Origin: Candidatus Doudnabacteria bacterium
Lineage (GTDB): Bacteria; Patescibacteriota; JAQUNI01
Assembly (NCBI GenBank): GCA_041644975.1
Contig: JBAZQX010000004.1
Location: forward strand, 9,189 to 73,188
Reading direction: 5' to 3'
Length of the DNA stretch: 64,000 nucleotides
In this document: positions 18,061 through 53,553 of the stretch, piece by piece
Numbering within the stretch: position 1 is the first letter of the stretch
Layout of the letters: every line of letters begins with the position of its first letter
Notes under the pieces: generated by a model
Database searches by the model: none
What the model was told of the DNA's origin: nothing
What the model saw: the letters and a program-made list of their open reading frames with translations, nothing else
Made by a program: the position numbers and the translations under genes

Positions 18061-20295
18061 ATGCAAGAATTACAAACCATTACAATTAAAGAGTATCTGG
18101 CACGCAAAGGCGTTGCCTTTCGTGAGAGCGGCAAAGAGCTTATCACCCACTGCCTTTTTAACGGCTGTGATGAGAATAGCAAAACTAACGAAGCTCATCT
18201 TTATTTTGACGCAGAAACAGGGCAATTCAACTGCAAAAAGTGCGGCGAAAAAGGCAACCTCATAACCCTTGCTAAACATCTTGGCGATAGAATAAATGAT
18301 ATTGCCCTTAATCCAATAGCTCCCATTAAAAATTCACAAAAATCCACGAAATTTGACGCAGAGCTGGTTGAAACCTGTCATCAAGCACTTTCAGTCAATA
18401 TCCGCCAGTATTTGAACGCACGGGGCATCACAGACCCCATTATAGACACATACAAGCTTGGTTGGGGCAAATTCTACGGCAAATGGTGGATTACTATTCC
18501 TATTCAGGATATTGATGGAAATTTTGTTTTTCTCAAATTACGGCAAGACCCAGAAGATACAAATAATCCAGATAAATATAAATTTTATCCTGCTGGGAGT
18601 AGCGCAACTATCTATGGATGGAAAATGCTGAAAAATAACAAAGGCACCATTGTAATCTGCGAAGGTGAGTTTGACCAATTAGTGTTGTTACAAAATGCTA
18701 TTCCCGCTATCACTTCCACGGCTGGCGTTGGAACTTTCAAAAAAGAGTGGATTGAATACTTGAAAAAATTGGAAAAAATTTATATTTGCTTTGATAAAGA
18801 TGAAGCTGGTGAGAAAGGAGCAGAGCGGCTCATTAAACTTTTATCTGAACATTTATCTGATACTGCTATTTACAAAATTACGCTCCCAGAACGAATGGTT
18901 GACGGCAAAGATATAACCGATTATTTCCTAAGATACAACGGCAATGTGGATGAATTGATTTACAAATTAGCAAAAGAATATCCAGAGCGAATTGATACCT
19001 CGCAGTTCAAGCCGCTATCCTCGCAGGATTTGGTTGAAATACTTGGATTGACGATAAAGCAGGATGATGAAAATAAAATCGTAACCTTCCTTTGCGAGTT
19101 ATCGGCATATACGGAAAACGCTCAATTCAACATCAGCTTTAACGCACCATCATCTACGGGTAAAAGCTATATCCCCACCGAGATTGCTCGGTTATTCCCA
19201 GAAGAAGATGTAATGGAGCTTGCCTATTGCAGTCCTACGGCATTTTTTCACGATGTCGGCGAATGGAACAAAGATATGAAAGGATATGTCGTGGATTTGT
19301 CTCGCAAAATTTTGATTTTTCTTGACCAACCACATACTTTACTTCTTCAACATCTCCGTCCGTTGCTCTCGCACGATAAAAAGGAGATTTCGGTGAAAAT
19401 TACTGATAAGACGCAGAAGTTTGGATTGAAGACCAAAAATATCCTACTCAAAGGATACCCCGCAGTGATTTTCTGCACGGCAGGATTGTTGATTAACGAG
19501 CAGGAAGCAACACGATTTCTCCTGTTAAGCCCAGAGATTAACCAAGAGAAAATCAGGCAAGGGATTTTGGAGAGCATTAAAAAAGAAGCAGACGCCGAGA
19601 GCTATAAGGGCTGGCTGGATGAAAACCCCGAACGAAAGCTACTTAAAGAGCGGATACGGGCAATAAAACTGGAAGGTATCCGTGAAATAAAAATTGCAAG
19701 TTATCAAAAGGTTGTTGATAGATTTTTGAGCGAAAATAAGGTGCTCAAGCCCCGACACCAGCGAGACATTAAACGCCTTGTCTCAATTATAAAATCCTTT
19801 GCCTTAATCAATCTCTGGTGGCGGGAAAAAAACGGCACAACCATTACCGCCAATGAGGATGACATTGAACAGGCATTTAAGATTTGGGACGCTATCTGCA
19901 TAAGCCAAGAGCTTAGTCTGCCACCGTATATCTACAATCTCTACCAAGAAGTTATCTTGAAGGCGTGGAATGACAAAAATAGCAACAGAAGCGAGGCAAC
20001 GGGACTGCTCGGCTTATCACGGCAGGAACTACTGCAAAAGCACTTTGAGGTCTATGGGCGGATGTTGGACACAAACCAGCTACGCCAGCAGATTTTGCCA
20101 ATGCTGGAGATGGCGGGGCTTATCGTGCAAGAGGCAGACCAAAACGACAAACGAAAAATGTTGATTTCCCCTACCGCACTAACCACTAAATCTCCGAACC
20201 AAAACAATAGTGAGAACGGGGGTGGGGTGAGCACCAACGAGGAAAACAATAGTGAAACGCAGGGTGGGGTAACTCCAAACTTAGGAATTTTCTGA
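18061..20295 (+). CDS. DNA primase (CHC2 zinc finger + TOPRIM) fused to a C-terminal P-loop NTPase-like domain (phage/plasmid primase, P4-alpha-like architecture)
   Basis: CHC2 ribbon HCLFNGCDENSKTNEAHLYFDAETGQFNCKKCGEKG. TOPRIM GTIVICEGEFDQ … CFDKDEAGEKGAERL. Walker-A-like NAPSSTGKSY in the C-terminal half. Confidence 0.75.
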   Translation: MQELQTITIKEYLARKGVAFRESGKELITHCLFNGCDENSKTNEAHLYFDAETGQFNCKKCGEKGNLITLAKHLGDRINDIALNPIAPIKNSQKSTKFDAELVETCHQALSVNIRQYLNARGITDPIIDTYKLGWGKFYGKWWITIPIQDIDGNFVFLKLRQDPEDTNNPDKYKFYPAGSSATIYGWKMLKNNKGTIVICEGEFDQLVLLQNAIPAITSTAGVGTFKKEWIEYLKKLEKIYICFDKDEAGEKGAERLIKLLSEHLSDTAIYKITLPERMVDGKDITDYFLRYNGNVDELIYKLAKEYPERIDTSQFKPLSSQDLVEILGLTIKQDDENKIVTFLCELSAYTENAQFNISFNAPSSTGKSYIPTEIARLFPEEDVMELAYCSPTAFFHDVGEWNKDMKGYVVDLSRKILIFLDQPHTLLLQHLRPLLSHDKKEISVKITDKTQKFGLKTKNILLKGYPAVIFCTAGLLINEQEATRFLLLSPEINQEKIRQGILESIKKEADAESYKGWLDENPERKLLKERIRAIKLEGIREIKIASYQKVVDRFLSENKVLKPRHQRDIKRLVSIIKSFALINLWWREKNGTTITANEDDIEQAFKIWDAICISQELSLPPYIYNLYQEVILKAWNDKNSNRSEATGLLGLSRQELLQKHFEVYGRMLDTNQLRQQILPMLEMAGLIVQEADQNDKRKMLISPTALTTKSPNQNNSENGGGVSTNEENNSETQGGVTPNLGIF

Positions 20296-20336
20296 CACTA
20301 TAAAAAAGGGCGAAAAACATATAACACTTCTAACAT

Positions 20337-20801
20337 ATGACAAAAGTATCACAAAAACAATTAGAGGCAAACCAAAAAAACGCCAAGCTCGGCGGAGTAA
20401 AGACCGATGAGGGCAAGGCGGTAAGTAAGCTAAATGCTTTAAAACACGGACTATTAAGTAAAGAGGTATTACTTAATGAAGAAGACGAAAAATCCCTTAT
20501 TGAACTCGGAAAAAGATTGCGGACAGAGTTAAAACCAGATACGGAACTTGAGCTATTGTTAGTTGATAGGATTGTAGCGAATTTTTGGAGATTGCGAAGA
20601 GCAATGATAATAGAACAACACGATGTTATCTCTGACACTGGAGGGTTAATGTATGATTGTGATAAATTTTTCCGCTATGAGACACTGCTTGAAAGAGGAA
20701 TTTATAAAGCCCTTCACGAATTGCAACGGATACAATCTGCTCGTGCTGGAGAGAAACCGCCCGCCCCATTGGCAGTGGATATTGATGTTTCTACTGATTA
20801 A
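20337..20801 (+). CDS. Hypothetical protein (mobile-element cargo)
   Basis: 154 aa, no known motif. Confidence 0.4.
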   Translation: MTKVSQKQLEANQKNAKLGGVKTDEGKAVSKLNALKHGLLSKEVLLNEEDEKSLIELGKRLRTELKPDTELELLLVDRIVANFWRLRRAMIIEQHDVISDTGGLMYDCDKFFRYETLLERGIYKALHELQRIQSARAGEKPPAPLAVDIDVSTD

Positions 20802-20950
20802 TAAAATGGGTTTGTTTCGCAAAAATGGTGGCTTTTGGTGGCTTTTTTTGTAAGGTTAATTGGAACAACAATTTATTCTTTATTCAAGCGGAAAAATTGA
20901 TTTTAATTTCAAAAAATAAACCTATCAATCTCTAATGATTTCGGCGGATT

Positions 20951-21553
20951 TTGAGAAAAAATATTATGGCAAAGCAAGAAGCAGAATGGAGTAAAAGATT
21001 AAGTATTTTCTGGCTAAAGAAGCACGGCTATCTTGATGGCGGCTGGCAGTATGGGAGTATTAAGTGGACTTATGGGATGAGCGGCAATGAAAGCAGTATC
21101 GGCTTCAATGTTATGATTAACGGGGATGAGGGCGACAATATCAGATTACAATACACATACACGAGCCGAGGAACTGATGAAAAAGAAAGTATGGATTACA
21201 GGGTTGAACTTACTACAACTCCTTGTAACTATGGCGGCAAACGATACTGGTTTATCTGCCCACTAACCAAGGATGGAAAGTATTGTGGACGGCGGGTAGG
21301 GGTGCTTTTCAGTATTGGCAAGTGGTTCGGTTGCCGACACTGTGGAAATATTGCATACCAATCACAGTTTGAGGGCGGTAATATTCGCACAGGTTCAGTT
21401 TTTGAACCAGATGTTGAAAAAGCATACAACGAAGTGAAATTGCAATACTACAACGGCAAACCAACAAGAAAATATAAACGCTACCTACGATTAAGACAAA
21501 AGATGGATAATTCGTGGGCAAAAGCGGCTTTAAAATTTGGCATTAAGTTTTAA
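20951..21553 (+). CDS. Hypothetical protein with C4 zinc-ribbon (CNYGGKRYWFICP…CGRRVGVLFSIGKWFGCRHCGN)
   Basis: Two CxxC pairs. Otherwise unrecognised. Confidence 0.4.
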   Translation: MRKNIMAKQEAEWSKRLSIFWLKKHGYLDGGWQYGSIKWTYGMSGNESSIGFNVMINGDEGDNIRLQYTYTSRGTDEKESMDYRVELTTTPCNYGGKRYWFICPLTKDGKYCGRRVGVLFSIGKWFGCRHCGNIAYQSQFEGGNIRTGSVFEPDVEKAYNEVKLQYYNGKPTRKYKRYLRLRQKMDNSWAKAALKFGIKF

Positions 21554-21582
21554 GTATGGTATTATAGATGTGTTGACCCGCC

Positions 21583-21682
21583 GCAAAAGCAATTCACAAG
21601 GATTTTTATTTGTAATGCTGTCCCTAAAGGGGCGGTCTGCCAGCATTACTACTCCTTGTGAGCAAGTGGTTGGGTCAACCAG
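21583..21682. promoter_or_regulatory. Inverted-repeat structure upstream of the recombinase gene: gttgaccc…gggtcaac flanking gtaatgctg-22nt-cagcattac
   Basis: Perfect 9-bp inverted repeat inside an outer 8-bp inverted repeat. Candidate recombination/operator site. Confidence 0.4.
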
Positions 21683-21704
21683 ACCGTCCTTTTAAGTAAT
21701 AAAT

Positions 21705-23402
21705 ATGACAAAAATTACACAAATTACACAAAAAAACATAAAAAATAAATATTTTCTTTATGCCCGCAAGTCATCAGAAAGCGAAGATAGACAGGTGCAG
21801 TCCATTGATGACCAAGTAAATCGGCTTAAACAACTTGCCAAAGATTTAAGTTTGGATATTAAAAAAATCTATACCGAATCAAAAACAGCCAAGAAGCCAA
21901 ACAACCGCCCCCTATTTGATGAAATGATACAGAGAATTGAAAATGGCGAAGCGGATGGAATTTTATGCTGGCACTTAAACAGATTGACACGCAACCCAAT
22001 TGATAGCGGTAAATTAAGTTGGCTTTTGCAACAAGGAGTAATCAAATCCATTCAAACCATAGAACGACAATATCTACCCGATGACAATGTTCTACTATTT
22101 AATGTTGAGACTGGTCAGGCTAATCAGTATCTTTTGGATTTAAGCCGTGATACTAAACGGGGACTTCTCAAAAAACTGAATACGGGCTGGCAAAATGGCA
22201 TCGCCCCATTGGGTTATCTGAATGACAAAGAAAACAAAACTATTATCAAAGACCCAGAGCGTTTTAATCTCGTCCGCAAAATGTGGGATTTAATGCTCAC
22301 GGGCAATTATACGCCGCCAAAGATTTTAGATATTGCTAATAAGGAGTGGGGTTTTAGAACACGAAAATTCAAAAGGATTGGCGGCTGTCCTCTGTCCAGA
22401 AGCGGGATTTATAAAATTTTTACAAGTTTGTTCTATGCGGGGGTTATTGAAAATAAAGGGGTGCAATATGAGGGGAAACACGAGCCGATAATTACCCTTG
22501 AAGAATACGACCGAGTGCAAATGTTGCTTGGGAGAAAAGGCAAGCCAAGACCCAAAAAGCACAAATTTGCCTTTACTGGATTTATTCGGTGCGGGGAGTG
22601 CGGCTGTCTTTATACTGCTGAAACAAAACAAAAACTAATCAAAAGCACTGGCGAAATCAAAAAATATACTTATTATCATTGCACCAGAAAAAAAAGAGAT
22701 ATTAACTGCACCCAAAGGAAATTTATTAGAGAAAACAAATTAGAACTCCAAATTGAAAAAGAATTAGAAAAATACACTATTCTCCCAGAATTTTTACATT
22801 GGGCTTTAGAGGGTCTGAATAAAAAAAATGACACCGAAATTGAAGACCGAACAAAAATTTATGAAATGCAACATAAAACTTTAACTGAAACTCAAAAAGG
22901 ATTGGACGAGCTTACTAAAATGAGATACCGCCAGTTAATTGATGATGAAACTTTTGTCAAAGAGCGTAATGAATTACAAACCAAAATCACCCAGCTTAAA
23001 GAAAAATTAAGAGAAACCGAAAGCCGAGCCGAGCGATGGCTGGAGCTAACAGAGAAGACTTTTAATTTTGCAACATATGCTAGAAAAGCATTTTTGATAG
23101 GAGGGTTAGAACTAAAGAAAGAAATACTGATGACATTAGGGAAAAATGCGATAATAAAGGACAAAAAGCTCTATATTGAGCCGAATGAATGGCTACAACC
23201 AATCAAAAATGGCTATCCTGCCTTAGAAAAAGAATATCTAAGGTTAGAACCAGCCAAAATGCGCTTAAATAAAACAAAAACAGAGGCTTTAACCTCTGTT
23301 CGTGCACGGTGGCTGGGGAGGCAGGATTCGAACCTGCGAATGGCGGCTTCAAAGGCCGCTGCCTTACCACTTGGCTACTCCCCAAAATGGAATCAGGAAT
23401 AA
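21705..23402 (+). CDS. Large serine recombinase (resolvase/invertase catalytic domain + recombinase domain + zinc ribbon + coiled coil)
   Basis: YARKSS…DDQ catalytic region, GILCWHLNRLTR, CGECGCLYTAE…YYHCTRKK zinc ribbon. The last roughly 30 codons are antisense translation of tRNA-Gln. Confidence 0.85.
   Translation: MTKITQITQKNIKNKYFLYARKSSESEDRQVQSIDDQVNRLKQLAKDLSLDIKKIYTESKTAKKPNNRPLFDEMIQRIENGEADGILCWHLNRLTRNPIDSGKLSWLLQQGVIKSIQTIERQYLPDDNVLLFNVETGQANQYLLDLSRDTKRGLLKKLNTGWQNGIAPLGYLNDKENKTIIKDPERFNLVRKMWDLMLTGNYTPPKILDIANKEWGFRTRKFKRIGGCPLSRSGIYKIFTSLFYAGVIENKGVQYEGKHEPIITLEEYDRVQMLLGRKGKPRPKKHKFAFTGFIRCGECGCLYTAETKQKLIKSTGEIKKYTYYHCTRKKRDINCTQRKFIRENKLELQIEKELEKYTILPEFLHWALEGLNKKNDTEIEDRTKIYEMQHKTLTETQKGLDELTKMRYRQLIDDETFVKERNELQTKITQLKEKLRETESRAERWLELTEKTFNFATYARKAFLIGGLELKKEILMTLGKNAIIKDKKLYIEPNEWLQPIKNGYPALEKEYLRLEPAKMRLNKTKTEALTSVRARWLGRQDSNLRMAASKAAALPLGYSPKWNQE
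23310..23384 (-). tRNA. tRNA-Gln (anticodon UUG), CCA encoded
   Basis: rc = TGGGGAGTAGCCAAGTGGTAAGGCAGCGGCCTTTGAAGCCGCCATTCGCAGGTTCGAATCCTGCCTCCCCAGCCA. 7-bp acceptor with U1-A72, anticodon stem CGGCC/GGCCG, loop CUUUGAA, T-arm GCAGG-TTCGAAT-CCTGC. Confidence 0.85.
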
Positions 23403-23471
23403 GGAATTATGAATTAGGAAGATAAAATGAAATTCATTATTCATGATTCACAATTCCTGATTCATAATTCC

Positions 23472-25109
23472 CTATTTCACAATCTCCCCTCCCAAAACCT
23501 CCAACGCTTCTCTAGTTAAATTATTATTCTGCCGCAATTCCACCTTTTCGCATTGAATCTGCCATTTGCCACCTAAGATTTGGTCTAAAACCCCTTCCAC
23601 TATTTTTTTATTGCGGGCTTGAGAAACCATATCTTTATGGAAATCCCGCGGGAAACCCAAAACCAAGGAGCCATCGCGAAAAGCGACTGGCTGGCAGAGT
23701 TTCAAGAAAGCGCATAGAGAATAATTTAAAGGTTCCACCGCCTTTAATACCTCGCTCCATTTACCTACTGCCTGTTCTAAATTCATTGTCGGCTTTTGAT
23801 ATTCGGGCAACCCCGTTAGATGTCTACTATCTAACGGGGCAAAGGAAGGCATTGATGGCTCTTCTTCTTTTTCTCCCAGTTTCGGGCTTTGCGTTTTCTC
23901 CTCGGTCTGCCCGCCTAAATTTGCCCGCCTAAATTTGCTTTCAAATTTTGGCGGGTTTGCTGACAAACTTGGGTGGGTCTGCCGCGCTTCCGCTACTTTG
24001 CCCATTGCTTCACTATATTCTATAATGGCTAACTCCAAAGACAATTGAGGAATTAAAGCCGCGTCCAAACTATTCTTCGCAGCCATAAAAAGCCTTACTA
24101 AATAGGCTAAACTTTTCAGAGAGAAATTTTGGGCGCGAGCGACTAATTCTTCTTTTTGGGCAGCAGAAAAAGAAAGCCCGGCGTGATCCAATAAAGCGGG
24201 CTGAACCTTAGCCAACATCATTCTGCGGAGATAATCAACGAGCTCGTCTGTAAAATTAAATAGGTCTTGACCATTGGCGACGATCTCGTTCACTTTGCGA
24301 ATAGCTTGCGCGCTGTCGCAAGAAGCCAGCATATTCACGAAATCGGATATTAAAGACCAATCGACCGTGCCTGAAAAATCAGCCACTTTACTCAACTTGA
24401 GCTCTTTTTTGGGCCAAGAAAGAATCTGACCTAAAATACCTTCGGCATCCCGCTCCCCGCCGTCCGCTTTGATGGCGATCAATCTCAAAATCTCGGGGTT
24501 TAAAGCGCGCTTCTCCTCCCTTAAAATCCGCGCTAAGCGGTGTTCAATTTCAGCGACTGTTAATTTTTTAAAGTCAAATCTCTGACAGCGTGAAAGAATC
24601 GTCTCTGGCACTTCGTGCACCTCTGTCGTCGCTAAAATGAAAAGAGTACGCGGAGGCGGCTCTTCCAAGGTTTTTAAAAGAGCGTTAAAGGCTTCCCGTG
24701 TCAACATATGCGCTTCATCAATAATAAAAACTTTAAAACTGTCTCTTTGGGGCGCGAAACGCACATTCTCACGGAGAGCGCGAATCTCATTGATGCCGCG
24801 GTTGGAGGCGGCGTCAATCTCAATTAAATCCAATGACCTGCCAACCGTAATCTCCTGACAACTCACACAACGGTTGCAGGGTTCCACTTTCCCGAGCCTG
24901 CGCTCGCGCACGCTTTTTTTGTTCTGGCAATTAATCGCTTTAGCGAGAATGCGCGCCACGGTGGTCTTGCCAATGCCGCGGGGACCCGCGAAAATATAAG
25001 CATGGGCAATTTTGCCCAAGCTTAATTCATTCTTTAAAGTTTGGATAATGGCAGTCTGTCCCTCCACTTCAGAAAATTTTTGCGGTCTGTATTTACGATA
25101 TAAAGTCAT
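23472..25109 (-). CDS. dnaX: DNA polymerase III subunit gamma/tau
   Basis: YRPQKFSEVEGQ…AYIFAGPRGIGKTT (Walker A), zinc module C..C..C, SRCQRF. Confidence 0.9.
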   Translation of the reverse strand: MTLYRKYRPQKFSEVEGQTAIIQTLKNELSLGKIAHAYIFAGPRGIGKTTVARILAKAINCQNKKSVRERRLGKVEPCNRCVSCQEITVGRSLDLIEIDAASNRGINEIRALRENVRFAPQRDSFKVFIIDEAHMLTREAFNALLKTLEEPPPRTLFILATTEVHEVPETILSRCQRFDFKKLTVAEIEHRLARILREEKRALNPEILRLIAIKADGGERDAEGILGQILSWPKKELKLSKVADFSGTVDWSLISDFVNMLASCDSAQAIRKVNEIVANGQDLFNFTDELVDYLRRMMLAKVQPALLDHAGLSFSAAQKEELVARAQNFSLKSLAYLVRLFMAAKNSLDAALIPQLSLELAIIEYSEAMGKVAEARQTHPSLSANPPKFESKFRRANLGGQTEEKTQSPKLGEKEEEPSMPSFAPLDSRHLTGLPEYQKPTMNLEQAVGKWSEVLKAVEPLNYSLCAFLKLCQPVAFRDGSLVLGFPRDFHKDMVSQARNKKIVEGVLDQILGGKWQIQCEKVELRQNNNLTREALEVLGGEIVK

Positions 25110-25199
25110 AAATTGGGAATGGGGAATTATGAATTATGAATCAAGAATAAGATTGTAAAAAAAATTCTTTTTCTGTTCACTCATCACTTATGAATTGCG

Positions 25200-25440
25200 C
25201 TAGTTATTCTCTTAAAATAACGCCTTGGGAATTAACCATTCAAAATTATTCTAATTAACCTAATTGTTCTAATTATTCTAAATAAATCCCAATACCCAAT
25301 GACCAATGCCTAAAATTAATTTTGGTTATTCATGATTTGGTCATTGGTCATTTCTTAGGTTAATTAGATCAATTAGAACAATTAGAATAATTCTTAGAAG
25401 TGAAAGGCACGGTGAATACCATAGCCTCAAATTCCCCTAA
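25200..25440. repeat. AT-rich word-repeat palindromic intergenic spacer (taattagaa / ccaatgacc words)
   Basis: Long imperfect inverted repeat of aattattctaattaacctaattgttctaattattctaaata…ccaatgaccaatg. Similar word-repeats at 29095-29257 and 35430-35481. Confidence 0.7.
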
Positions 25441-29035: not shown

Positions 29036-29257
29036 AACGGGCTTTGAAACAAAGGCCCTTTTTTTTATCAATTTAATGAGGTAAAATAGGAGAAGAGTTA
29101 AAAATTATTCTAATTATTCTAATTATTCTAAATAATGACCAAATCTTGAATTACCCAATAATCTAACTTGATGATTGATTTTGTTTATTGGGATTTAGGC
29201 ATTGGGGCTTATTTAGGTCAATTAGGTTAATTAGAGCAATTAGAAATTTACAAATTT

Positions 29258-30951: not shown

Positions 30952-32034
30952 TTAGGACAGGGGTGGGTAGAAAAAGAATAACTGGACGTGGGGATTGCCT
31001 ACAATCGTATACTCGTGCCCTGCCAGACAAGCAGGCATCATTAGGGTCACGCCCGGTTTTAAATAAAGATCGGAACCGAACCCTTTCAAATATCCGCTCC
31101 CAGAAGTCACGGCTATTCCGTAGAAGCCTTCTTTACATATCTCAACCTCTGAATTAACCGTAAGGCGAGAAGCGCCAAAGAATTGCCCCGTATTCTCTGG
31201 CAGGATGTCGCATTCGTTATTTCCGCCTTCCGTCCAGATGGTGCGGGGCTTCATAAACACTTCACTTTCAAACTTTTTCTTGTTGAAATAGCTAAAGTCA
31301 AGAGAATCTAGGGCTGTTTCCCAGTCCAATCCTAATAGCCCGTCGGCAGCACGAGGCAGACCAAGCATCTTCCACTCGGCAAAGATACTCCAGTCCGTCG
31401 GTTCCTGCGGCTCAAGGACGCAACAACCTATCAGCGAATGCGGCACTCCCGCTGGAATATAGAAGATATCCCCCCCAATTTCTGGTTCATAGATGAACAT
31501 GCAGCTACGCATCCCGTTCCCATTTTGATCCCGATACCATTCAGTAATGTCACGGCGAGTGATCTGACGGTCCCAGCCTACCCATACCTTGGCATCTCTC
31601 CTCGTTGCTATAATAATCCAGGCTTCCGTCTTCCCAAAAGGAGAGTTTAAATACTTTTGCGCAAATTTGCGATCCGGATGCCAGTGGACGGGGATATAGC
31701 TTGCTGTGTCAAAAATCTTTACTAAAATCCCCAGTGCCTGCCCCCATTTTACTAAATGATTGGGTCCTAACATTTCGGCTGGGAATTGCGCAATCAGTTC
31801 AGTTAAAAGGACAGTGCCGCCCCCAGGAAGCGCAACCCGCCCAATCCCCTCGTGGGGCTCATTCGTTCTTCCTGGCGTCATTGCCTTGTTCGTAGATAAA
31901 AACCAGCCCTCCGGGCGGCGATCATCCCGGGGACTAGGTTCGCCAAAGAATTGCGCCCTTAGTTTTCCACCCTGGTAACAATGCGGAAAAACACTGGGGA
32001 CCAGAACCAACGGACGTTCTAATAGACTTCCCAT
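30952..32034 (-). CDS. manA: Mannose-6-phosphate isomerase, class I (cupin, Bacillus ManA/YvyI-like)
   Basis: VHWHPDRKFAQKYLNSPFGKTEAWIIIAT matches the type I PMI zinc-site motif (QVHPDD…GKTECWYI). Confidence 0.7.
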   Translation of the reverse strand: MGSLLERPLVLVPSVFPHCYQGGKLRAQFFGEPSPRDDRRPEGWFLSTNKAMTPGRTNEPHEGIGRVALPGGGTVLLTELIAQFPAEMLGPNHLVKWGQALGILVKIFDTASYIPVHWHPDRKFAQKYLNSPFGKTEAWIIIATRRDAKVWVGWDRQITRRDITEWYRDQNGNGMRSCMFIYEPEIGGDIFYIPAGVPHSLIGCCVLEPQEPTDWSIFAEWKMLGLPRAADGLLGLDWETALDSLDFSYFNKKKFESEVFMKPRTIWTEGGNNECDILPENTGQFFGASRLTVNSEVEICKEGFYGIAVTSGSGYLKGFGSDLYLKPGVTLMMPACLAGHEYTIVGNPHVQLFFFYPPLS

Positions 32035-32123: not shown

Positions 32124-33173
32124 ATGTCTAATTTTCATTGGCAAAAACTCACCAAACCCTTTATTTGTCTGGCGCCCTTGGCCGGGATCTCTGACTCCCC
32201 TTTTCGTCAAATCTGCAAGGAATTTGGCGCGGATGTGGTTTTTACTGAAATGATTTCCGCTGAAGGACTTAGCCGTGAGCAAAATAAAACTCTAGAGCTC
32301 ACCGCTTTTTCTCCCAAAGAACGACCTATTATCTTGCAACTCTTTGGTAAAAATCCAGAGAGTTTTGGACGCGCCGCGCAAGTGATTCAGAATTTATCGC
32401 CTGGGAAAAAACCAGATGGCGTTGACCTGAATCTAGGTTGTCCAGCGCGTAAAGTAAAAACTCACGGTTCGGGAATTTCCTTAATGCGCGATCCTGGTCT
32501 CGTTAATAAAATTATTGCCGCAATCACCGCGCATACCGATCTGCCGCTCTCCATTAAAATCCGCGCGGGAATTGGGAAAGAAGGGATTAAAGCGGCGAGT
32601 TTCGCTTCAAAAATCAACTGGCAAAAACTAGCCGCCGTTACTGTCCATGGCCGTTATTTAGAACAAGGATTTTCCGGACCCATTGATTATACGGAGATTA
32701 AAAAAATCAAAAGGATTGTGGGTGATAAAACCGTGATTGGAAATGGGGGGATTAAGGACTTAAGAAGCGCCCAAATAATGTTAAAAAAAACGGGAGTTGA
32801 TGGCGTAATGATTGGCAAAGGAGCTTTGGGGAGACCGTGGGTTTTTGAAAAAATTAAAAAAGCCTTAAAAAGAAAGACCCCTCCTAGCCTCCCCTTGCCA
32901 AGGGGAGGAAGAAATACTCTCCCCCTTGGTAAAGAGGGTAGAAAAGAGAGGGTCTTCGCCCCTTCATTACCAAACACAATAAAAACCGCCCTCAAGCACG
33001 CAAGATTGATGATTAAACTCAAAGGCGAAGAGAAGGGAATACGGGAAATGCGGAAACACCTTTTATGGTATTTCCACGATTTTGAGGGCGCCAAAGGAAC
33101 AAGGAAAAAACTTACTAAAATTGAAACATTTAGAGACTTGGAGGACACTCTCCTTTATCTTCCCAGTAATTAG
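32124..33173 (+). CDS. dus: tRNA-dihydrouridine synthase (DusB-like) carrying an in-frame insertion of about 35 aa derived from a palindromic repeat
   Basis: CLAPLAGISDSPFR…, LNLGCPARKV, FMN-binding TIM barrel. Inserted PPSLPLPRGGRNTLPLGKEGRKERVFAPSLP is encoded by repeat 32873-32958. Confidence 0.85.
   Translation: MSNFHWQKLTKPFICLAPLAGISDSPFRQICKEFGADVVFTEMISAEGLSREQNKTLELTAFSPKERPIILQLFGKNPESFGRAAQVIQNLSPGKKPDGVDLNLGCPARKVKTHGSGISLMRDPGLVNKIIAAITAHTDLPLSIKIRAGIGKEGIKAASFASKINWQKLAAVTVHGRYLEQGFSGPIDYTEIKKIKRIVGDKTVIGNGGIKDLRSAQIMLKKTGVDGVMIGKGALGRPWVFEKIKKALKRKTPPSLPLPRGGRNTLPLGKEGRKERVFAPSLPNTIKTALKHARLMIKLKGEEKGIREMRKHLLWYFHDFEGAKGTRKKLTKIETFRDLEDTLLYLPSN
32873..32958. repeat. RPE-like palindromic element (gacccctcc…caaggggagga…cccccttg…gagggtcttc) inside the dus coding region
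   Basis: About 80% identical to 48068-48153. Arms are mutually complementary. Confidence 0.8.
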
Positions 33174-35262: not shown

Positions 35263-35481
35263 TTTGGAGGTCAAGCCTGCCGGCAGGCAGGCGAAGGCTT
35301 GACACTGGAGGTCGTGTGTCTGAAGATCTGGCATAGCCATGAAAAGCGCGACACGAGTAGCTGTCAGACTCTCGCCCGCCTGCCATCGCCTGTTGGTGAA
35401 GCCAATGGCGGGCAGGTCTGACCTCCAAGGCACGATACGGTTAATTAGACTAATTAGACATTAGGTTAATTAGAAATTTCT
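35263..35481. repeat. GC-rich mosaic repeat E (copy 1) ending in ggttaattagactaattagacattaggttaattagaaatttct, directly upstream of the recR ATG
   Basis: Shares cctgccggcaggcaggcgaaggc, gcgcgacacgagta, gtcagactct and the 35-bp taattag block with 61141-61288. Confidence 0.75.
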
Positions 35482-36144: not shown

Positions 36145-36190
36145 GTAGAGACAGGTTTCAAATTGGTCTCTACAATTTTTTTATTTTTTA
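36145..36190 (+). terminator. Intrinsic terminator after recR (gtagagac…gtctctac + T-run); a second similar hairpin just upstream
   Basis: 8-bp perfect stem followed by TTTTTTTTATTTTTT. Confidence 0.6.
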
Positions 36191-36193
36191 TTT

Positions 36194-36340
36194 ACCCCAT
36201 TAGAGAAAGTTCATCCTGTTACAAATAAATTTGTAACGGGACACGCTGACAAAGTCGGTGGCGGGGAAGATATAGACGCTGACGGTGGTTTAATGCTACC
36301 GTCAGCGGAAACCGTTAGAGAACGAAGTTCTCTAACGGGG
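36194..36340. repeat. Nested-hairpin element (CCCCATTAGAGAA…TTCTCTAACGGGG) with inner cctgttacaaataaatttgtaacggg and gctgacggtggtttaatgctaccgtcagc hairpins
   Basis: Closest relative is 61867-61994, which shares the outer arms and the gttacaaat…atttgtaac inner hairpin. Confidence 0.75.
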
Positions 36341-40040: not shown

Positions 40041-40234
40041 CTTGCTATAACTATATCTAAAAAAGCCTTAAAAGTAAACCCCGTTAGATGTTTACTATCT
40101 AACAGGGTAAACAAAATATTGACAAATAAAAATAGCTGTGCTTTAATGTAGTTTCTCCCCCAAATTGATCTTTTATCAAACAAGTTTCCTGATTTTGGGA
40201 GAAGATTGGGAAAAATCATACGGAGGAATGAGAG

Positions 40235-41791: not shown

Positions 41792-41975
41792 TCTTTTTTT
41801 ATATTTTCGATTTCATAACCCACCCCTACCCTCCCTTATCAGGGAGGGAGTAAAACAATTGCTGAAAAATAATACGTAGTTTATAATAAAGATGAAGATA
41901 AAAATTATCAATGAGATTGCTTCGTCGTCCCTCGGCAAGCTCGGGACTTCTCGCAATGACAGTATAAAATAAACA

Positions 41976-43595: not shown

Positions 43596-43778
43596 ATTTT
43601 TCCGCCCAAGGCGGATCAGCTCTTCGAGTCTGAAGACTCATCAGAGTCTGAACGACCTAGGGCTGAAAATCAATTTGAAAATCCAAATTTTAAATTTTTT
43701 AATTTTAAAACTTTTTTTGTTTTAGAATTTAAAATTAAAGCATTTAAAATTGAATTAAAATTAAGAATTAAAAATTTT
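43596..43778. repeat. AT-rich word-repeat spacer (aattttaaa words) containing a GC-rich palindromic insert ggatcagctcttcgagtctgaagactcatcagagtctgaacgacc
   Basis: The insert (43613-43657) recurs inverted at 61197-61240. Matching aattttaaa spacer at 45531-45662 flanks the other side of the GT39 gene. Confidence 0.7.
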
Positions 43779-45530
43779 ATGTCTAAACTGACTAAAATTC
43801 TCCCCCCTCTCTTAATTATCATAATGGTCTTGATCTCTTTCTTCTCCGTCCGCCAGGATTCCGCGATTATGGACGAGGTCGCCCATATCCCTGCTGGCTA
43901 TTCCTACCTTAAATATCAAGATTACCGCTTAAACCCCGAGCATCCCCCTTTAGCGAAAATGCTGGCTGCTCTTCCTCTCCTTTTCTTGCACCTCCAATTC
44001 CCCTTAAATCATCCCTCTTGGACAACCGATGTGAATGGTCAATGGGAAGCGGGATATCAATTTTTATACCACCTTGGCAATGACGCGGATAAAATACTCC
44101 TCTGGTCGCGCCTGCCGATCATCGCTCTTTTAATTTTGCTGGGGATCTATGTTTGGAAATGGGCGAAAGAACTTCTGGGAGCAAAATGGGCGCTTGCGGT
44201 TCTGTTTTTATATACTTTCTCTCCCACGATCATTGCCCATAGCCACTATGTGACCACTGATTTGGCCGCGACATGCTTTATCTTTATCGCCTTTTATTAT
44301 TTTGTTCATTATTTAAAAAAACCGAGCCTTAAGAATACTCTCTTGGCTGGTCTTGCTCTGGGTTTAGCCGAGGTCGCTAAATTTTCGGCGGTTCTTCTTT
44401 TCCCGTGTTTTGTTCTTCTTGCCCTTGTCTCTCTCCTTTTGAACAGGCCTCCTCAAACCTCGTGGCTCAAGCAAACAAAAAACCATATCGGCAAATTTAT
44501 TCTGATTTGTTTGATTGCGCTCGGAGTAATCCTCATTGTCTATCAACCCGCGGTCTGGGCTTTCAATTTAGAAAAACAACAAGAGTTAATCCGCGGTTCT
44601 ATCGGGCCGGAAAAAATTGAAAATATTGTGCTCGCTATAAGTAAAATCCCAGGCGCCCAAGGCCTTGCTCAATACATCTTGGGTATTGTGATGGTCTTTG
44701 CCCGCGTGGGAGGCGGCAACACCAATTACTTCTTAGGTCAGGTTTCTAATCAAGGGTGGTGGTATTATTTCCCAACCTGTTTTTTTCTAAAAGAAACAAT
44801 TTCGGTCTTAATCTTAACGGGATTAGCTTTGCTTTTTGTGATTCGTAAATTTGCCACCAATCTCGTAAAAGATCGTTCGCGCAAATGGCTTCCTTGGCTT
44901 AGGGAATACGCGCTTTGTCATCTGGCGGAAATCTCAATGGTAGTTTTTATCATTGTTTATGGGGTGGTCAGTATGAAGGGCAAACTGAACTTAGGTGTCC
45001 GCCACATTATGGTCCTTTTCCCCTTTATCTACATTTTAATCATTAAAGAATTTAAACGGCGTACAGCAGAAACCGCCTACAAAAAACTTTTCACAGGAAT
45101 ATTAATTGTTCTCCTTGTTTGGGTTGGCGTGGAAGTCACGATAAATTATCCTTCGTACCTTGCTTATTATAGCGAACTCACTGGCGGCTCAAAGAATGGT
45201 TACAAATTTATCACGGATTCCAATCTGGACTGGGGGCAGGATTTAAGACGTATGGCGGAATGGGTGAACGCTAACCCTGATATCCAAAAGATTAAAGTGG
45301 ATTATTTTGGCGGCGGAGTACCCTCTTATTATCTTGGCGATAAATATCAAGAATGGCATTCGCAGAATGGACCAACAACGGGTTGGATTGCTGTCAGCAC
45401 CAACTATTTTTCTGAAAGTATTTATCGCAAAGATTCCACCCTTGCCACCTCTTATTACTATCTGGAATTAAGAAAGCCCGAAAAAATCTTCGGGCATTCC
45501 ATATTTGTGTATTATATACCAGAAAAGTAA
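43779..45530 (+). CDS. GT-C membrane glycosyltransferase, family 39-like (PMT_2-type)
   Basis: MDEVAHIPAGYSYLK…NPEHPPLAKMLAALPLL, C-terminal SNLDWGQDLRRMAEWV. Paralog of 13374-15269. Confidence 0.65.
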   Translation: MSKLTKILPPLLIIIMVLISFFSVRQDSAIMDEVAHIPAGYSYLKYQDYRLNPEHPPLAKMLAALPLLFLHLQFPLNHPSWTTDVNGQWEAGYQFLYHLGNDADKILLWSRLPIIALLILLGIYVWKWAKELLGAKWALAVLFLYTFSPTIIAHSHYVTTDLAATCFIFIAFYYFVHYLKKPSLKNTLLAGLALGLAEVAKFSAVLLFPCFVLLALVSLLLNRPPQTSWLKQTKNHIGKFILICLIALGVILIVYQPAVWAFNLEKQQELIRGSIGPEKIENIVLAISKIPGAQGLAQYILGIVMVFARVGGGNTNYFLGQVSNQGWWYYFPTCFFLKETISVLILTGLALLFVIRKFATNLVKDRSRKWLPWLREYALCHLAEISMVVFIIVYGVVSMKGKLNLGVRHIMVLFPFIYILIIKEFKRRTAETAYKKLFTGILIVLLVWVGVEVTINYPSYLAYYSELTGGSKNGYKFITDSNLDWGQDLRRMAEWVNANPDIQKIKVDYFGGGVPSYYLGDKYQEWHSQNGPTTGWIAVSTNYFSESIYRKDSTLATSYYYLELRKPEKIFGHSIFVYYIPEK

Positions 45531-45662
45531 ATTTTAAATTCTTAATTTTTAATTTTAAATCAATTTTAAATGCTTGAATTTTAAATTTTAAAACAAAGAA
45601 TAAAAAGTTTTAAAATTAAGGATTTGAAATTTGGATTTGATTTAAAATTTAGAATTTAAAAT

Positions 45663-46715: not shown

Positions 46716-46829
46716 TTGACAAAATGCTAAGGTTTATTATATAATATTAATTCGCTCTTTGATGGTACATTCTACATTTAGTTGCGCTTTGAACAGTTAT
46801 AAAAAATCCTAATTATAAGGAGAGACGCT

Positions 46830-47120
46830 ATGTCTTTTAATAACGATATATATGATAGTTTTGGGGATATAATAATACCCCAAGAGAAGAAAAAAGTCGT
46901 AGCAGAAAAATTAGAAGGGATTACACAAGAAATAGAAGAACTCTCTGCTAATTTGGTGCAACTCAACTCTGTGGAATTGTTAAAAGAGATCCTTTCCCTC
47001 CTTAAGCAAGGAAAGCGAGGAGAAGCAGAGGAAACCATTGGAAAAGCATGGACAACTCTGGAACGTGAGTATTATAGTCTCGCGGAAGGATCCTCTCTTA
47101 TCCCTACTGAAAAGAAATAA
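46830..47120 (+). CDS. Hypothetical small protein
   Basis: 96 aa, no motif. Confidence 0.35.
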   Translation: MSFNNDIYDSFGDIIIPQEKKKVVAEKLEGITQEIEELSANLVQLNSVELLKEILSLLKQGKRGEAEETIGKAWTTLEREYYSLAEGSSLIPTEKK

Positions 47121-47477
47121 AAACTATGTAAAATAGCCTCTTTAATAGAAGGGGCTGAGGACGATTTTATAACCCAAGGATTAGATACTAACGTGTCTTT
47201 TTCTTTGGGTGGGGATAGCCATATAAGAACCATTAAACAGGACATGTGGCTCCCTCCAGATAAAAGAGTCTATCCAGTGCTTTTGATGGGATTGATGAAA
47301 GCTACATCCATGCCGCAACCCTAAAAGTTGCGGATTTTTTTATAAAAATTGAAATATGATTTTTTACGATGCAATTTCCCAAACACTTGCTCTGTGATTA
47401 ATTTTCTGCTTTAATATAAACAGGTTTGTTCCTGAACGCACCCTTAATGCACCTTGAATATCTTCAGGAGGTAGAAA

Positions 47478-47753
47478 ATGGCGGAAGGTTTAAATTTAAA
47501 ACTAAGCCCTGTTCAAAGCTTAACAGTAAGATTAATTGCTGGAAAAGAAAATATGACAGGAGAAGAAATAATAACTGTCGCTCTAAACCTATATGAAACC
47601 GTACAGGGTGAGCTAGACTCATCACCTGACCGAGTAGCCTTAGCATTAGTGAAAAACAATGGAGAAGTTTATAAGGAAATAATCCTCCCTAACCATATTC
47701 CAATACTACCCGCTCATACCAATATAATTTCAATACAAAAAACATCATCTTAA
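47478..47753 (+). CDS. Small hypothetical protein, tandem paralog 1
   Basis: SD AGGAGGT. LALVKNNGEVYKEIILPNH parallels LALVSPRFRIRKEIVLPRH of the next gene. Confidence 0.5.
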   Translation: MAEGLNLKLSPVQSLTVRLIAGKENMTGEEIITVALNLYETVQGELDSSPDRVALALVKNNGEVYKEIILPNHIPILPAHTNIISIQKTSS

Positions 47754-47766
47754 AGGAGGTTTAGTA

Positions 47767-48042
47767 ATGTCAGAGTTGAGTATCACATTTAGTAAGAACT
47801 GGAGCGCCGAGATAAAAAGAATGGCTGAAAAAAGGGGAATAGAACCAAAAAACTTGATTTTAGACGCGCTGACTGTACTATCAGTCTTAGAAGAAGAACT
47901 AGCTTCTGGAGAGGGAAAACAAGGTTTAGCTTTAGTAAGCCCCCGTTTCCGAATCAGAAAAGAAATAGTGCTTCCCCGTCATTCCTCTAAACTATTAACA
48001 CAGAATTCGCTTACAATAGGGCCCACGCTCGCCGTAGACTAA
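47767..48042 (+). CDS. Small hypothetical protein, tandem paralog 2
   Basis: SD AAAGGAGG. Paralogous to 47478-47753. Confidence 0.5.
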   Translation: MSELSITFSKNWSAEIKRMAEKRGIEPKNLILDALTVLSVLEEELASGEGKQGLALVSPRFRIRKEIVLPRHSSKLLTQNSLTIGPTLAVD

Positions 48043-48067
48043 AAATCTACGGTTTTTTTTTATTCTA

Positions 48068-48153
48068 CTAGACCCCTCCCCAGCCTCCCGTAGGTCAAGG
48101 GGAGGAAAATTTTCACTCCCCCTTGCCAAGGGGGAGAAAAGAGGGGGTCTTTC
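48068..48153. repeat. RPE-like palindromic element, intergenic copy
   Basis: tagacccctccccagcctcccgtaggtcaaggggaggaaaattttcactcccccttgccaagggggagaaaagagggggtctttc. Confidence 0.8.
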
Positions 48154-49439
48154 TACCTCTTGATCTCTTTGAACCCACAATATTTTTGCAAAACCTTGGG
48201 CACTTCAATAGAACAGTCTTCGCGCTGATAATTTTCCATAATCGCAATTAAAGCCCTGCCAATCGCAATAGCAGTGGAATTGATGGTATGGACAAATTTT
48301 TTATTCCCTTTCTCGTCTTTGTATTTGATATTCAGGCGGCGCGCTTGGAAATCCGTGTCGTGGCTCGCCGAAACTACCTCGCGGTAACAACCCTCTGACG
48401 GCAGCCAAGCTTCCAAGTCAATTTTTTTAGCATTAGGCGCGCCCAGATCGCCGGTTGCGATATTCACTGCTTGATAATGAATTCCCAAGCCCTGCCAAAT
48501 TTCTTCTACGGTTTTGACAATCATTTTATAAACTTGCCACGAATCTTCTTGCGTAGCGAACGCGAACATTTCCAGTTTATCAAATTGATGCCCCCGCAAA
48601 ATTCCTTTTAAATCCTTGCCATAAGCGCCAGCCTCCCGCCGAAAGCAAGACGAAAAACCCGTATAAAGTTTTGGTTTCCCGGGGGCTAGCCCCAAAATCT
48701 CGTCCATATGATACGCTGCAAGCACAACCTCGGCGGTGCCAATCAAATATAATTTTTCTTTTTCATCACCCGTGAGCTCATAAATTTCATTTTTATCCGC
48801 GGGGAAGAAGCCTGTGCCATACATCGCAGCCTCGCGCACGAGCATAGGCGGCAGGATCGGAGTAAAACCTTTTTTAATTAAAATATCCAAAACATATTGT
48901 ATAAGAGCAAATTCCAGGCTCACAAGCTCGTTTTTTAGATACCAAAAACGGGCGCCTGAAACCTGCGCGCCTTTTTCAATATCTATTAAATCCAAAGCCT
49001 CCCCCAATTCATAATGAGATTTGGGTTTAAAATCAAACTTTGATGGCTCTCCCCATTTATGATCCACCGCGTTGCCGGAAGCATCCGGCGCCACTGGCAC
49101 AGAATGATCTGAAAGATTAGGAAATTGATCTAATAAAATTTTGATTTCTGCTTCTTTCTCCTTTAATTTTTCCTTTAACCCTTTTTCAAACTCACTCTTT
49201 TTCTGTATTCTCTGAATCATTTTCTGACGCTCCTTTTCATCTTCAATTTTCACTATTTTACGGGAAAATTCATTCTTAGCTTGTTCGTGTTTATTTTTTA
49301 TACCAATCAGATTCCTCCGTATTTTGTCCAATTCTAAAAATTCATCCACTTTTTCTGATGGCATTGCCTTTAAATGGCGATTTTTAAATTCCGTCCGCCA
49401 GAGATCTGGCTGTTCGCGCAATAATTTTATATCAATCAT
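48153..49439 (-). CDS. serS: Serine--tRNA ligase
   Basis: N-terminal coiled coil, class II motifs (FRRE, GxGxGxxR), 428 aa. Confidence 0.9.
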   Translation of the reverse strand: MIDIKLLREQPDLWRTEFKNRHLKAMPSEKVDEFLELDKIRRNLIGIKNKHEQAKNEFSRKIVKIEDEKERQKMIQRIQKKSEFEKGLKEKLKEKEAEIKILLDQFPNLSDHSVPVAPDASGNAVDHKWGEPSKFDFKPKSHYELGEALDLIDIEKGAQVSGARFWYLKNELVSLEFALIQYVLDILIKKGFTPILPPMLVREAAMYGTGFFPADKNEIYELTGDEKEKLYLIGTAEVVLAAYHMDEILGLAPGKPKLYTGFSSCFRREAGAYGKDLKGILRGHQFDKLEMFAFATQEDSWQVYKMIVKTVEEIWQGLGIHYQAVNIATGDLGAPNAKKIDLEAWLPSEGCYREVVSASHDTDFQARRLNIKYKDEKGNKKFVHTINSTAIAIGRALIAIMENYQREDCSIEVPKVLQKYCGFKEIKR

Positions 49440-52728: not shown

Positions 52729-53553
52729 TCATTTTGCATTTTGATTTTTACATTTTACATTATTTACCAGTTCTACCAGATTCATAAGAAGCATCATCAC
52801 AGTCATTGGTCCGACGCCGCCCGGCACAGGCGCCAGAAAAGAAGCTTTTTTCTTCACGCTCGCCGCTTCCACATCCCCTTGAATTTTTCCCGCCCTCCAG
52901 CTCGTACCGGCATCAATCACGACGGCTCCTCTCTTGATCATCGTCCCGCGAATTAAATTGGGTTTACCCACACCCGAAATGATAATATCAGCTTTTTTAA
53001 CTTGAGCGGCTAGAGCTTTTGTATTTTGATCGTAAACCTTTACGCTTGCGCCTAATTTTTGCATTAAACGCGCCGCCGGCTCACCCACTAATTTTCCCGC
53101 TCCCACTACCGCCACCTCGCAACCTTCCACCGCGACCTTATATTCGGCGAGGAGCGCGGCAATTCCTAAAGCCACAGGCGAGACTATGGCACGATTTTTA
53201 AAACCCTCTACGTCCATCTTCTTAGGTATACATTTCAGAACTTGATCTCTATCAATACCCTTAGGCAGGGGCAACTGCACCACTATGCCGTGAGGTTCTT
53301 TTTGTTTAATCGCCAAACGCAATATTTGGCAAATCTTTGGAGCGGGGGAAGAAGCAGGCAGGGTGACTAAGGAAAAGCTGACCCCCAAAGAATGGCAAAT
53401 TTCCTTTTTCCTGCGCACAAAAATTTGGGAGGCTCGATCATGCCCGACCATCAAAACTAAGAGGCGAGGTTTTACAGATAGACCTTTTATCTCCTTCTGA
53501 AGATAACGAAAAAATTTTTGGGCTAGTTTTTTACCATCTAAAATCTGGAACAT
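52729..53553 (-). CDS. folD: Bifunctional methylene-THF dehydrogenase/cyclohydrolase FolD
   Basis: ILDGKKLA…, VQLPLP, GAGKLVGEP, GVGKPNLI. Confidence 0.9.
   Translation of the reverse strand: MFQILDGKKLAQKFFRYLQKEIKGLSVKPRLLVLMVGHDRASQIFVRRKKEICHSLGVSFSLVTLPASSPAPKICQILRLAIKQKEPHGIVVQLPLPKGIDRDQVLKCIPKKMDVEGFKNRAIVSPVALGIAALLAEYKVAVEGCEVAVVGAGKLVGEPAARLMQKLGASVKVYDQNTKALAAQVKKADIIISGVGKPNLIRGTMIKRGAVVIDAGTSWRAGKIQGDVEAASVKKKASFLAPVPGGVGPMTVMMLLMNLVELVNNVKCKNQNAK

Follow-up and report, generated by a model that had tools for sequence, protein, structure and literature searches.

The stretch of DNA examined here (the window; 64,000 nt) comes from a Candidatus Doudnabacteria bacterium of the Patescibacteria (Candidate Phyla Radiation, CPR) and carries two copies of a palindromic element, one inside the tRNA-dihydrouridine synthase gene dus and one beside the seryl-tRNA synthetase gene serS. 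The dus gene (32124-33173, plus strand, 349 aa) matches the Pfam family Dus (PF01207, E = 3e-71) and the PDB entries 1vhn and 6ei9. The serS gene (48153-49439, minus strand, 428 aa) carries the Pfam domains Seryl_tRNA_N and tRNA-synt_2b, and a 100% identical protein is named serS of Ca. Doudnabacteria. With the inverted repeats (AGACC...GGTCT) taken as limits, the copies occupy 32875-32955 and 48070-48150 on the plus strand and are each exactly 81 nt long. A first-pass annotation had quoted the palindromic sequences as two copies at 32873-32958 and 48068-48153; both are present, and their limits are refined here. The copies share one orientation and approximately 78% of their bases, both are imperfect palindromes, and their G+C content of 53-58% compares with 40% for the window. 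The predicted RNA fold of the dus copy reaches -45.4 kcal/mol (z = -5.5, equalled in 0 of 200 shuffles) and that of the serS copy -40.7 kcal/mol in the window (z = -2.2 to -3.6 against shuffled sequence, depending on the strand). The whole element can fold in two ways, either as an outer stem around two hairpins or as a single long hairpin. Profile E-values for the two copies are 1e-20. No third full copy was found in the window with blastn-short, nhmmer or a covariance model, and a further ~17 kb of the same genome past the window ends yielded no additional copies. A covariance-model candidate at 3492-3563 in bipA was rejected, as the region aligns to E. coli BipA with a length difference of only 2 residues. 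An Rfam search returned only sub-threshold noise from microRNA hairpins (23-26 bits against gathering thresholds of 74-87).

Each element is built as a doublet, from two modules in inverted orientation. The module consists of a C-rich box, ACCCCTCC (ACCCC[T/A]CC), followed after 2-4 nt by a 7-bp hairpin, CCTCCCC-loop-GGGGAGG. In the dus doublet, the left module (32875-32908) is composed of AG, the box ACCCCTCC, TAG and the perfect hairpin CCTCCCC-TTGCCAA-GGGGAGG; a spacer, AAGAAATACT, follows at 32909-32918; and the right module (32919-32955), inverted and partly decayed, reads CTCCCCC-TTGGTAA-AGAGGGT ... GAGAGGGTCT. The covariance model scores the dus doublet at 66 bits and the serS doublet at 67 bits, both of which belong to its training set. 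Single modules and tandem clusters exist besides doublets. Altogether the window holds five box-plus-hairpin modules against 0.12 expected, a count reached in 0 of 200 simulated sequences. One intergenic single module (41814-41848, plus strand; ATAACCCACCCC-TA-CCCTCCC-TTATCA-GGGAGGG) scores 26.5 bits (E = 3e-5 over 41814-41884) and has a syntenic partner with altered stem bases in a relative (L005, 15706-15763). Another, of a distinct sub-type and likewise intergenic (9416-9453, plus strand; ACTCCCACCCCCTCC-AT-CTCCCCC-TCGGGCA-GGGGGAG), is matched weakly by the covariance model (E = 0.055). A near-identical module of this sub-type (the 9433 type) lies at an unrelated site, 7751-7771, of a locus from an 89% relative (L017), and a possible fragment of one, assigned tentatively, lies at 2255-2283 on the plus strand of the window (GCAGGGGGAGTGTAATTGG; 90% identical to 9441-9469). 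Modules also form a cluster ahead of the dus gene of a further relative (L008, 657-770). [quoted passage not shown]

The dus open reading frame (ORF) runs through the element in frame and without a stop codon, so that the element encodes approximately residues 251-277 (KTPPSLPLPRGGRNTLPLGKEGRKER[V]). Homologues of the window Dus come from Patescibacteria. Two separate blocks, query residues 14-249 and 278-341, align with the Thermotoga Dus structure 1vhn; between them 28 query residues face 4, and the position of the insert corresponds to the junction between the triosephosphate isomerase (TIM) barrel and the C-terminal helical domain. Together with the empty site of an orthologue described below, this break in the alignment bears out the earlier description of an in-frame insertion between conserved Dus segments. 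Family-invariant residues, e.g. C106, K145, H175 and R177, are retained, and the catalytic residues are intact. Overall confidence is high in an AlphaFold model for which 71 homologues were used (mean predicted local distance difference test, pLDDT, 92.4; predicted template modelling score 0.90). Its sole low-confidence stretch is residues 251-280 (pLDDT <65; means of 62, 44 and 57 over 10-residue blocks), situated between the helices 240-249 and 282-300. The insert, whose placement in a surface loop the first-pass annotation had suggested checking, is thus the only low-confidence loop of the model and is predicted to be a disordered surface loop of ~27 aa. The linker from invariant F241 to invariant H292 counts 26 residues in 42 of the 71 homologues as against 50 in the window Dus. 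Unrelated expansions of up to +33 aa occur at this linker in about 30% of CPR Dus proteins, which indicates that it tolerates insertions.

The natural variability of linker length in CPR Dus proteins could also invite the reading that the segment is a native linker expansion, or else an artefact of assembly, with a merely coincidental likeness to the serS copy. This reading is refuted for practical purposes. The two copies are alike at ~78% over 81 nt, with the same length and architecture and with the profile E-values given above; the same architecture recurs in dozens of unrelated genomes; and two independent datasets (ENA ERZ27249422 and Logan SRR8449827) contain the identical insert-bearing dus, so that the insert is not an assembly artefact.

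Comparison of orthologues shows the insertion and its subsequent decay. In an orthologue of 68% identity (P0003; loci L005-L007) the site is empty, KKASAE|VFPPPLL facing KKALKRK[...]VFAPSLP of the window protein. The net gain in the window dus is therefore 26-27 codons and not the roughly 35 aa first supposed, as VFAPSLP is native Dus sequence with VFPPPLL as its counterpart in the empty-site orthologue. In a neighbour-joining tree from which the insert columns were excluded, P0003 is sister to the insert-bearing clade at a bootstrap value of 94%; support at deeper nodes is weak, at 23-61%. Two orthologues of 89% identity keep the insert in frame, one with many substitutions (L003) and the other with a 21-nt in-frame deletion (L004). 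Between the window and L003, nucleotide identity is 75% in the insert and 92% in the rest of the gene, and the ratio of nonsynonymous to synonymous substitution rates (dN/dS) is 0.81 in the insert and 0.22 elsewhere, the insert evolving approximately three times faster. The three orthologous copies have successively weaker hairpins, of -45.4, -37.5 and -12.7 kcal/mol, and the frame is kept. Fast evolution and hairpin decay within a preserved frame indicate that the hairpin is not maintained in the gene and that the insert peptide is a near-neutral passenger. Every orthologue with the extra peptide has repeat DNA, so that the refuting case named in the first-pass annotation, a segment shared at protein level by genomes without the repeat, does not arise. 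When the 33-aa insert peptide was searched against 1.84 billion representative proteins, the result was one low-complexity false match (P0241).

Two Dus orthologues at a greater distance carry family sequence at the same codon position. The P0005 gene has a single module, GATCCCCTCC-AG-CTCCCCC-TTAAC-AAGCGAGGG. The P0004 gene (L008) has a box, then a nested 73-nt palindrome of a GCCCGCC type, then the remaining element, with a spacer resembling that of the window dus copy. These inserts may go back to a single old insertion that later decayed and was lost in some lineages, or to repeated hits at one site, and the tree does not decide between the two. That the linker is a preferred target, struck independently in the window clade, P0004 and P0005, is a possible but somewhat unlikely history. 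It fits the position of the empty P0003 as sister to the filled clade, with P0004 and P0005 branching outside, and asks for two or three gains where a single gain asks for three or four precise losses; the unrelated insertions at the linker in CPR Dus proteins likewise point to a site that is open to repeated insertion. Set against this, the spacer GAAGAAAT(A)ACTC is common to the window dus copy and the L008 Dus insert and is not that of the serS copy (alignment scores of 81 vs 72), all three inserts occupy one codon position, hairpins are prone to deletion so that loss is easy, and the deeper nodes of the tree are poorly supported.

Two side observations belong to these dus loci. The GCCCGCC...GGCGGGC palindromes constitute a second, unrelated G+C-rich family, found at L008 1590-1662, where the copy is nested within the first element in P0004 dus and is still in frame, and at L005 11277-11432. 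Just upstream of dus, the window has a 360-aa gene without a Pfam match (30952-32034, minus strand), which by eye resembles cupin-type phosphomannose isomerases; relatives of the P0003 type lack it at that place and have only a 55-aa ORF.

The second copy lies in the 3' flank of serS, 2 nt from the stop codon (48153-48155, minus strand). A direct repeat abuts both element ends, TTCTACT at 48063-48069 on the left and TTCTACC at 48151-48157 on the right (plus strand), the latter including the serS stop (CTA on the plus strand, TAG on the gene strand). The two match in 6 of 7 letters (empirical chance 0.003) and could represent a target-site duplication. In the 89% relative L017 this site has identical element ends and conserved flanking repeats (GGTAGAA / AGTAGAA). 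By the covariance model the serS site of L017 holds two tandem doublets where the window has one, with a fold of -88 kcal/mol. In a 71% relative the serS site is without an element, though gene order also differs. On the same side of serS, the window has a region of ~1.4 kb (46716-48060) with three small unannotated ORFs, between serS and a gene for an FtsQ-like POTRA protein, which ends in a canonical terminator (CCGTAGACTAAAAATCTACGG followed by nine Ts, 48031-48060). This region is common to the 89% relative and absent in the 71% relative, where serS abuts the next gene.

The flanking repeat at serS raises the question of how the element moved. [quoted passage not shown] The ends AGACCCC[T/C]C...G[A/G]GGGTCT and the TTCTAC[T/C] repeat abutting the serS copy, with its low chance probability and its conservation in L017, are consistent with this. 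So is the dus copy by inference, since 81 + 7 nt breaks the frame, and an in-frame survivor would be expected to lack the duplication, as is observed. Target-site duplication was examined at 21 loci (18 viral doublets, the two window copies and a Verrucomicrobiia locus, L011) and is convincing only at serS and L028b. At L065 the flank gives a trivial 4/5 match, the flanks of most doublets merely extend the inverted repeat, and the dus copy has no flanking direct repeat, so that target-site duplication was rejected as a general feature of the family. One or two chance matches are plausible over ~20 loci and several offsets, and no parent insertion sequence with matching ends was seen in the loci examined. 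A classical MITE is accordingly regarded as unlikely. Absence of the duplication at most doublets favours a single-strand route of the REP/RAYT or IS200/IS605 kind. Nor do the modules match GGGGWSAS, the TIRYT flanking-repeat consensus.

Among the Pfam annotations of the ~81 kb examined there is no transposase and no RAYT (HUH Y1 transposase) gene. The sole recombinase in the ~81 kb is a large serine recombinase (21705-23402) that overlaps or abuts tRNA-Gln (23310-23384, minus strand). Near it lie a Toprim primase-like gene (18061-20295) and SNase and GIY-YIG genes. The region 18061-23402, and upstream to about position 1, is probably an integrated mobile element or prophage. Inside this putative element a composite repeat of ~125 nt (a 67-nt unit with GAGTATATTTACATACC, then TTTTACCCCACCCCGCTACTCACTAT) occurs 4-5 times, with sites at 1370-1436, 7240-7306, 9481-9547 and 9759-9825 and at 8289, 9564, 9607, 9836 and 20164; it may serve as a promoter or leader, or encode a small RNA.

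Taken with the anatomy of the modules and their distribution, the dus segment is most probably a non-autonomous palindromic repeat of the REPIN/MITE type that inserted in the dus linker, was tolerated there and is decaying. The insertion, its place in the protein, its relaxed evolution, the modular anatomy and the wide distribution of the family are direct results. One copy landed in dus of a Candidatus Doudnabacteria lineage, in the surface linker that leads from the catalytic TIM barrel to the C-terminal helical domain. As the element is 81 nt long, G+C-rich and stop-free, the reading frame continued through the insert, and the enzyme gained a loop of ~27 aa that is predicted to be disordered. 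As the linker tolerates length variation, the insertion was probably neutral or nearly so and was thus inherited; point mutation and in-frame deletion have later worn it down, with the reading frame alone conserved. The family would spread by transposition with an enzyme encoded elsewhere.

Several observations weigh against this interpretation. The empty dus site is known from an orthologue of only 68% identity, and no near-identical pair of filled and empty sites was found. The same-site inserts of P0004 and P0005 require either an old gain with several precise losses or repeated hits. The copy density is low, at about 4 loci per 81 kb of genome, and with no transposase annotated there, mobility is inferred. 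The 7-bp flanking repeat of the serS copy hints at cut-and-paste movement and so conflicts with most other copies. Finally, sequence conservation of the family across phyla goes far beyond that of usual REP/REPIN families and could reflect a host function.

A strict pattern made from the 22-base core of the two window copies, CAAGGGGAGGAA-N8-CTCCCCCTTG, matches 2 loci in GTDB genomes, 5 mostly generic hairpins in JGI metagenomes and nothing in viral contigs. The GTDB matches include a Verrucomicrobiia metagenome-assembled genome with two intergenic copies of the same box-hairpin-spacer-hairpin-box layout, one locus of which also encodes a protein typical of the Planctomycetes-Verrucomicrobia-Chlamydiae superphylum. 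The strict core was dropped as a family probe, being too strict, once a looser module pattern showed the family to be common. With this pattern, in which the left module was fixed and the right module free, 53 stretches of viral or proviral contigs are matched where roughly one would be expected, in DNA of 30-67% G+C. With redundancy removed, these stretches contain 55 copies, and 18 copies are full doublets of 71-96 nt. Several viral contigs carry 2-3 copies each. A right-module pattern found no match in the viral contigs, and neither did blastn of the serS copy against phages and plasmids. One viral carrier is a Mu-like phage related to phages of Pseudomonas and Stenotrophomonas. In a plasmid collection, carriers include Moraxella (in the narG-narH spacer), Aeromonas caviae, A. 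media, Shewanella, Rahnella, Photobacterium, Azospirillum and the cyanobacterium Pseudanabaena, with Deinococcus among the matches listed. Copies lie at 10 places in the Aeromonas caviae record and number up to 7 per megaplasmid in Rahnella. All plasmid-collection matches are in unannotated DNA, and the three inspected are doublets. E. coli has no copy of the family. The Moraxella doublet sits in a spacer of ~300 nt between narG and narH (L077, 1493-1790, on a plasmid of Moraxella sp. DOX410) that is present in seven Moraxella plasmids; in other genera narG and narH are directly adjacent. A filled and empty pair was not found at this site, which is filled in 7 of 7 Moraxella plasmids and too divergent in other genera.

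The family consensus is (T)AACCCCTCC-CNG-CCTCCCC-TTRTCA-GGGGAGG-AG...spacer...TCCCCCC-TGAYAA-GGGGGGA-TTGA-GGGGGGTT(A). The left and right consensus loops (TTATCA/TGATAA) are reverse complements, so the right module is a true inverted copy of the left. RNAalifold on the family gives an outer stem formed by the boxes and two hairpins, with almost no covariation.

Conservation of this kind could mean that the module or doublet is a functional signal of the host or phage and that the dus copy is an accidental by-product. The signal might be an mRNA 3'-end stabiliser or terminator-like hairpin, a hairpin sequestering a Shine-Dalgarno-like GGAGG, or a protein-binding site, and the likeness across phyla would then reflect function. 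Indeed, conservation between Patescibacteria and the Proteobacteria and Cyanobacteria extends to the sequence and is not confined to structure. The folds of intergenic copies stay strong (those of the serS sites in the window and L017), many phage copies lie ~10-30 nt from a start codon with GGAGG and CCTCC motifs in the modules, and the syntenic module upstream of a PMT_2 gene is kept between genomes diverged to 68%, with altered stem bases. The distribution of the copies makes a signal as the main role quite unlikely, as they stand in both orientations to their neighbours and in 3' flanks, 5' flanks and coding interiors alike. Nor do the hairpins have a trailing U-tract, and at serS a canonical terminator already adjoins the copy. 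Number and composition of copies vary between close relatives at one site (one doublet in the window and two in L017), covariation is minimal, Rfam has no matching family, and the dus copy loses its structure freely. Intergenic copies may still have a function in host or phage, which would help to account for the likeness across phyla.

In-frame copies outside dus are recurrent and yet a minority. They occur because the G+C-rich sequence lacks stop codons in most frames. In one phage terminase (L063) a module follows the complete GpA nuclease domain in frame and forms the C-terminal tail (...LEPQ-TPPSLPLSGEE-QKV...), in the same reading frame that gives TPPSLPLPRGG in Dus. Another lies at residue 490 of a polyvalent phage protein of 1250 aa (L024), and these two cases are the solid ones; a further module lies within a hypothetical ORF of 84 aa (L064). 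Five apparent cases (L037, L050, L051, L052 and L069) were rejected, as Pfam domains begin downstream and the copies are upstream of the real starts. The G+C-rich prophage contigs L051, L052 and L069 also have several different G+C-rich palindromic repeats upstream of TerL, e.g. one translating as SPLVGEMAAARGG, and this dense packing of palindromes accounts for the long, spurious N-terminal read-through ORFs there.

The likeness to Rickettsia palindromic elements (RPEs) proposed by the first-pass annotation holds for the behaviour in the reading frame and fails for the tag, the length and the recurrent colonisation of ORFs. RPEs are about 100-150 nt long with a CGTC tetranucleotide at one end (PMC3733652), and of the 44 copies known from R. 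conorii almost half lie within genes (Ogata et al. 2000, 2002, per PMC10969869, PMC3733652). Like them, the Doudnabacteria element is a short palindrome found both between genes and in a housekeeping gene, stop-free and read through in frame at a site tolerated by the fold, its host in this case being an RNA-modification enzyme. Set apart by description, it measures 81 nt, ends in AGACCCC...GGGGTCT and lacks the CGTC tag; one site among 4 loci in ~81 kb, a part of the genome, is intragenic. Its host is a free-living or episymbiotic CPR bacterium and not a member of the Rickettsiales, and its family occurs in several phyla and in phages where RPEs occur in one genus. On these features the element is not an RPE. 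To call such insertions unusual outside Rickettsiales was also an overstatement, given the in-frame copies within genes that are on record for ERIC, BOX, QMITE1, Anabaena MITEs and GTAG/CGTC REPs (PMC10969869, PMC3733652).

REPINs resemble the element more closely in plan. In both, the unit is a short palindrome between a 5' flank and a 3' flank, and units are arranged as inverted doublets that form hairpins. Both also show decaying single units (here 9416, 41814 and the P0005 Dus insert) and tandem clusters (L008 657-770 and the L017 serS site), and most copies here, though not the serS copy, lack a target-site duplication, as in REPINs. Differences are the missing GTAG or CGTC tag in the consensus, the low copy number, and cores that are nearly identical in at least four phyla, with copies in phage genomes too; REPINs have been described as lineage-specific and vertically inherited (PMC3337134, PMC3116915). 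With MITEs such as ERIC, BOX, QMITE1, the Anabaena MITEs, Nezha and Correia (PMC10969869, PMC3184786) the element shares small size, terminal repeats, occasional in-frame fusion, a lack of transposase coding capacity and, in one copy, a plausible 7-bp target-site duplication. It departs from them in the absence of duplication at most copies and in its two box-plus-hairpin modules, which are REP-like and not derived from an insertion sequence. The intragenic GTAG/CGTC REPs surveyed by Di Nocera et al. 2013 (PMC3733652) are likewise stem-loops tolerated in genes for known proteins of several species. The Doudnabacteria element has neither tag, and its sequence strings are absent from that survey.

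In-frame insertion of a repeat is therefore a known phenomenon; what is unexpected is the breadth of the family across phyla and in phages. The family appears to be undescribed and unusually widespread across phyla. No description of it, nor of any REP or MITE in CPR bacteria, was found in the searchable literature, which is incomplete. Its doublet of 72-81 nt recurs almost unchanged in distant phyla and in phage genomes, a spread that is notable because REP/REPIN-type repeats are usually lineage-specific. Tentatively, and with some doubt, the copies might form an undescribed superfamily of REPIN-like doublets without a GTAG/CGTC tag, whose core of ~30 nt is near-invariant across Patescibacteria, Verrucomicrobiota, Cyanobacteria, Alpha- and Gammaproteobacteria and their phages. 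If so, phage-carried horizontal spread of repeats would run contrary to the strictly vertical inheritance of the REPIN type, or alternatively the repeats would depend on a very conserved recognition partner, be it a transposase or a host factor. In CPR, no repeat family of this kind would have been reported before, and this one would have been kept in an essential-type gene over ~35-40% protein divergence. Phages may carry the element between phyla, and a cross-phylum, phage-borne and tagless family points either to a mobilising enzyme that has gone unrecognised or to a conserved function. Streamlined small CPR genomes would thus still carry selfish palindromic repeats, and one of these appears to have been translated within a conserved tRNA-modification enzyme over a long evolutionary time, a clean natural case, outside Rickettsia, of mobile DNA giving a protein a new loop. 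Proteins with such inserts look more divergent than they are, and gene callers and alignments can be misled where the genome is A+T-rich and the repeat G+C-rich.

Other repeats can be recognised in the same window. An inverted repeat of 65 nt with arms at 43713-43777 and 45536-45600 (91% complementary) exactly brackets a gene for a PMT-family glycosyltransferase of 583 aa (43779-45530), an arrangement that might be invertible or cassette-like. Intergenic repeats that are A+T-rich and heptad-like, of ATTCATG/ATTCCTG and TAATTAGA types, form direct and inverted pairs around many genes (23420-23485, 25100-25147, 53552-53613, 53669-53706 and 58499-58550; 25244-25392, 29099-29241, 35420-35478 and 61236-61294). 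Two dispersed repeats that contain hairpins look like terminators, one a 56-nt pair of 93% complementarity at 36186-36241 and 61927-61982 and the other the pair CCCCGTTAGAT...ATCTAACGGGG at 23799-23839 and 40079-40119. Beyond the 3' end of the window, at ~1-9 kb (L023, 705-8413), the Ca. Doudnabacteria genome encodes a gas-vesicle cluster with three GvpL/F genes, GvpG, GvpO, GvpK, two GvpA-type Gas_vesicle genes and an ArsA-like ATPase, which is unexpected in a lineage of ultra-small episymbionts.

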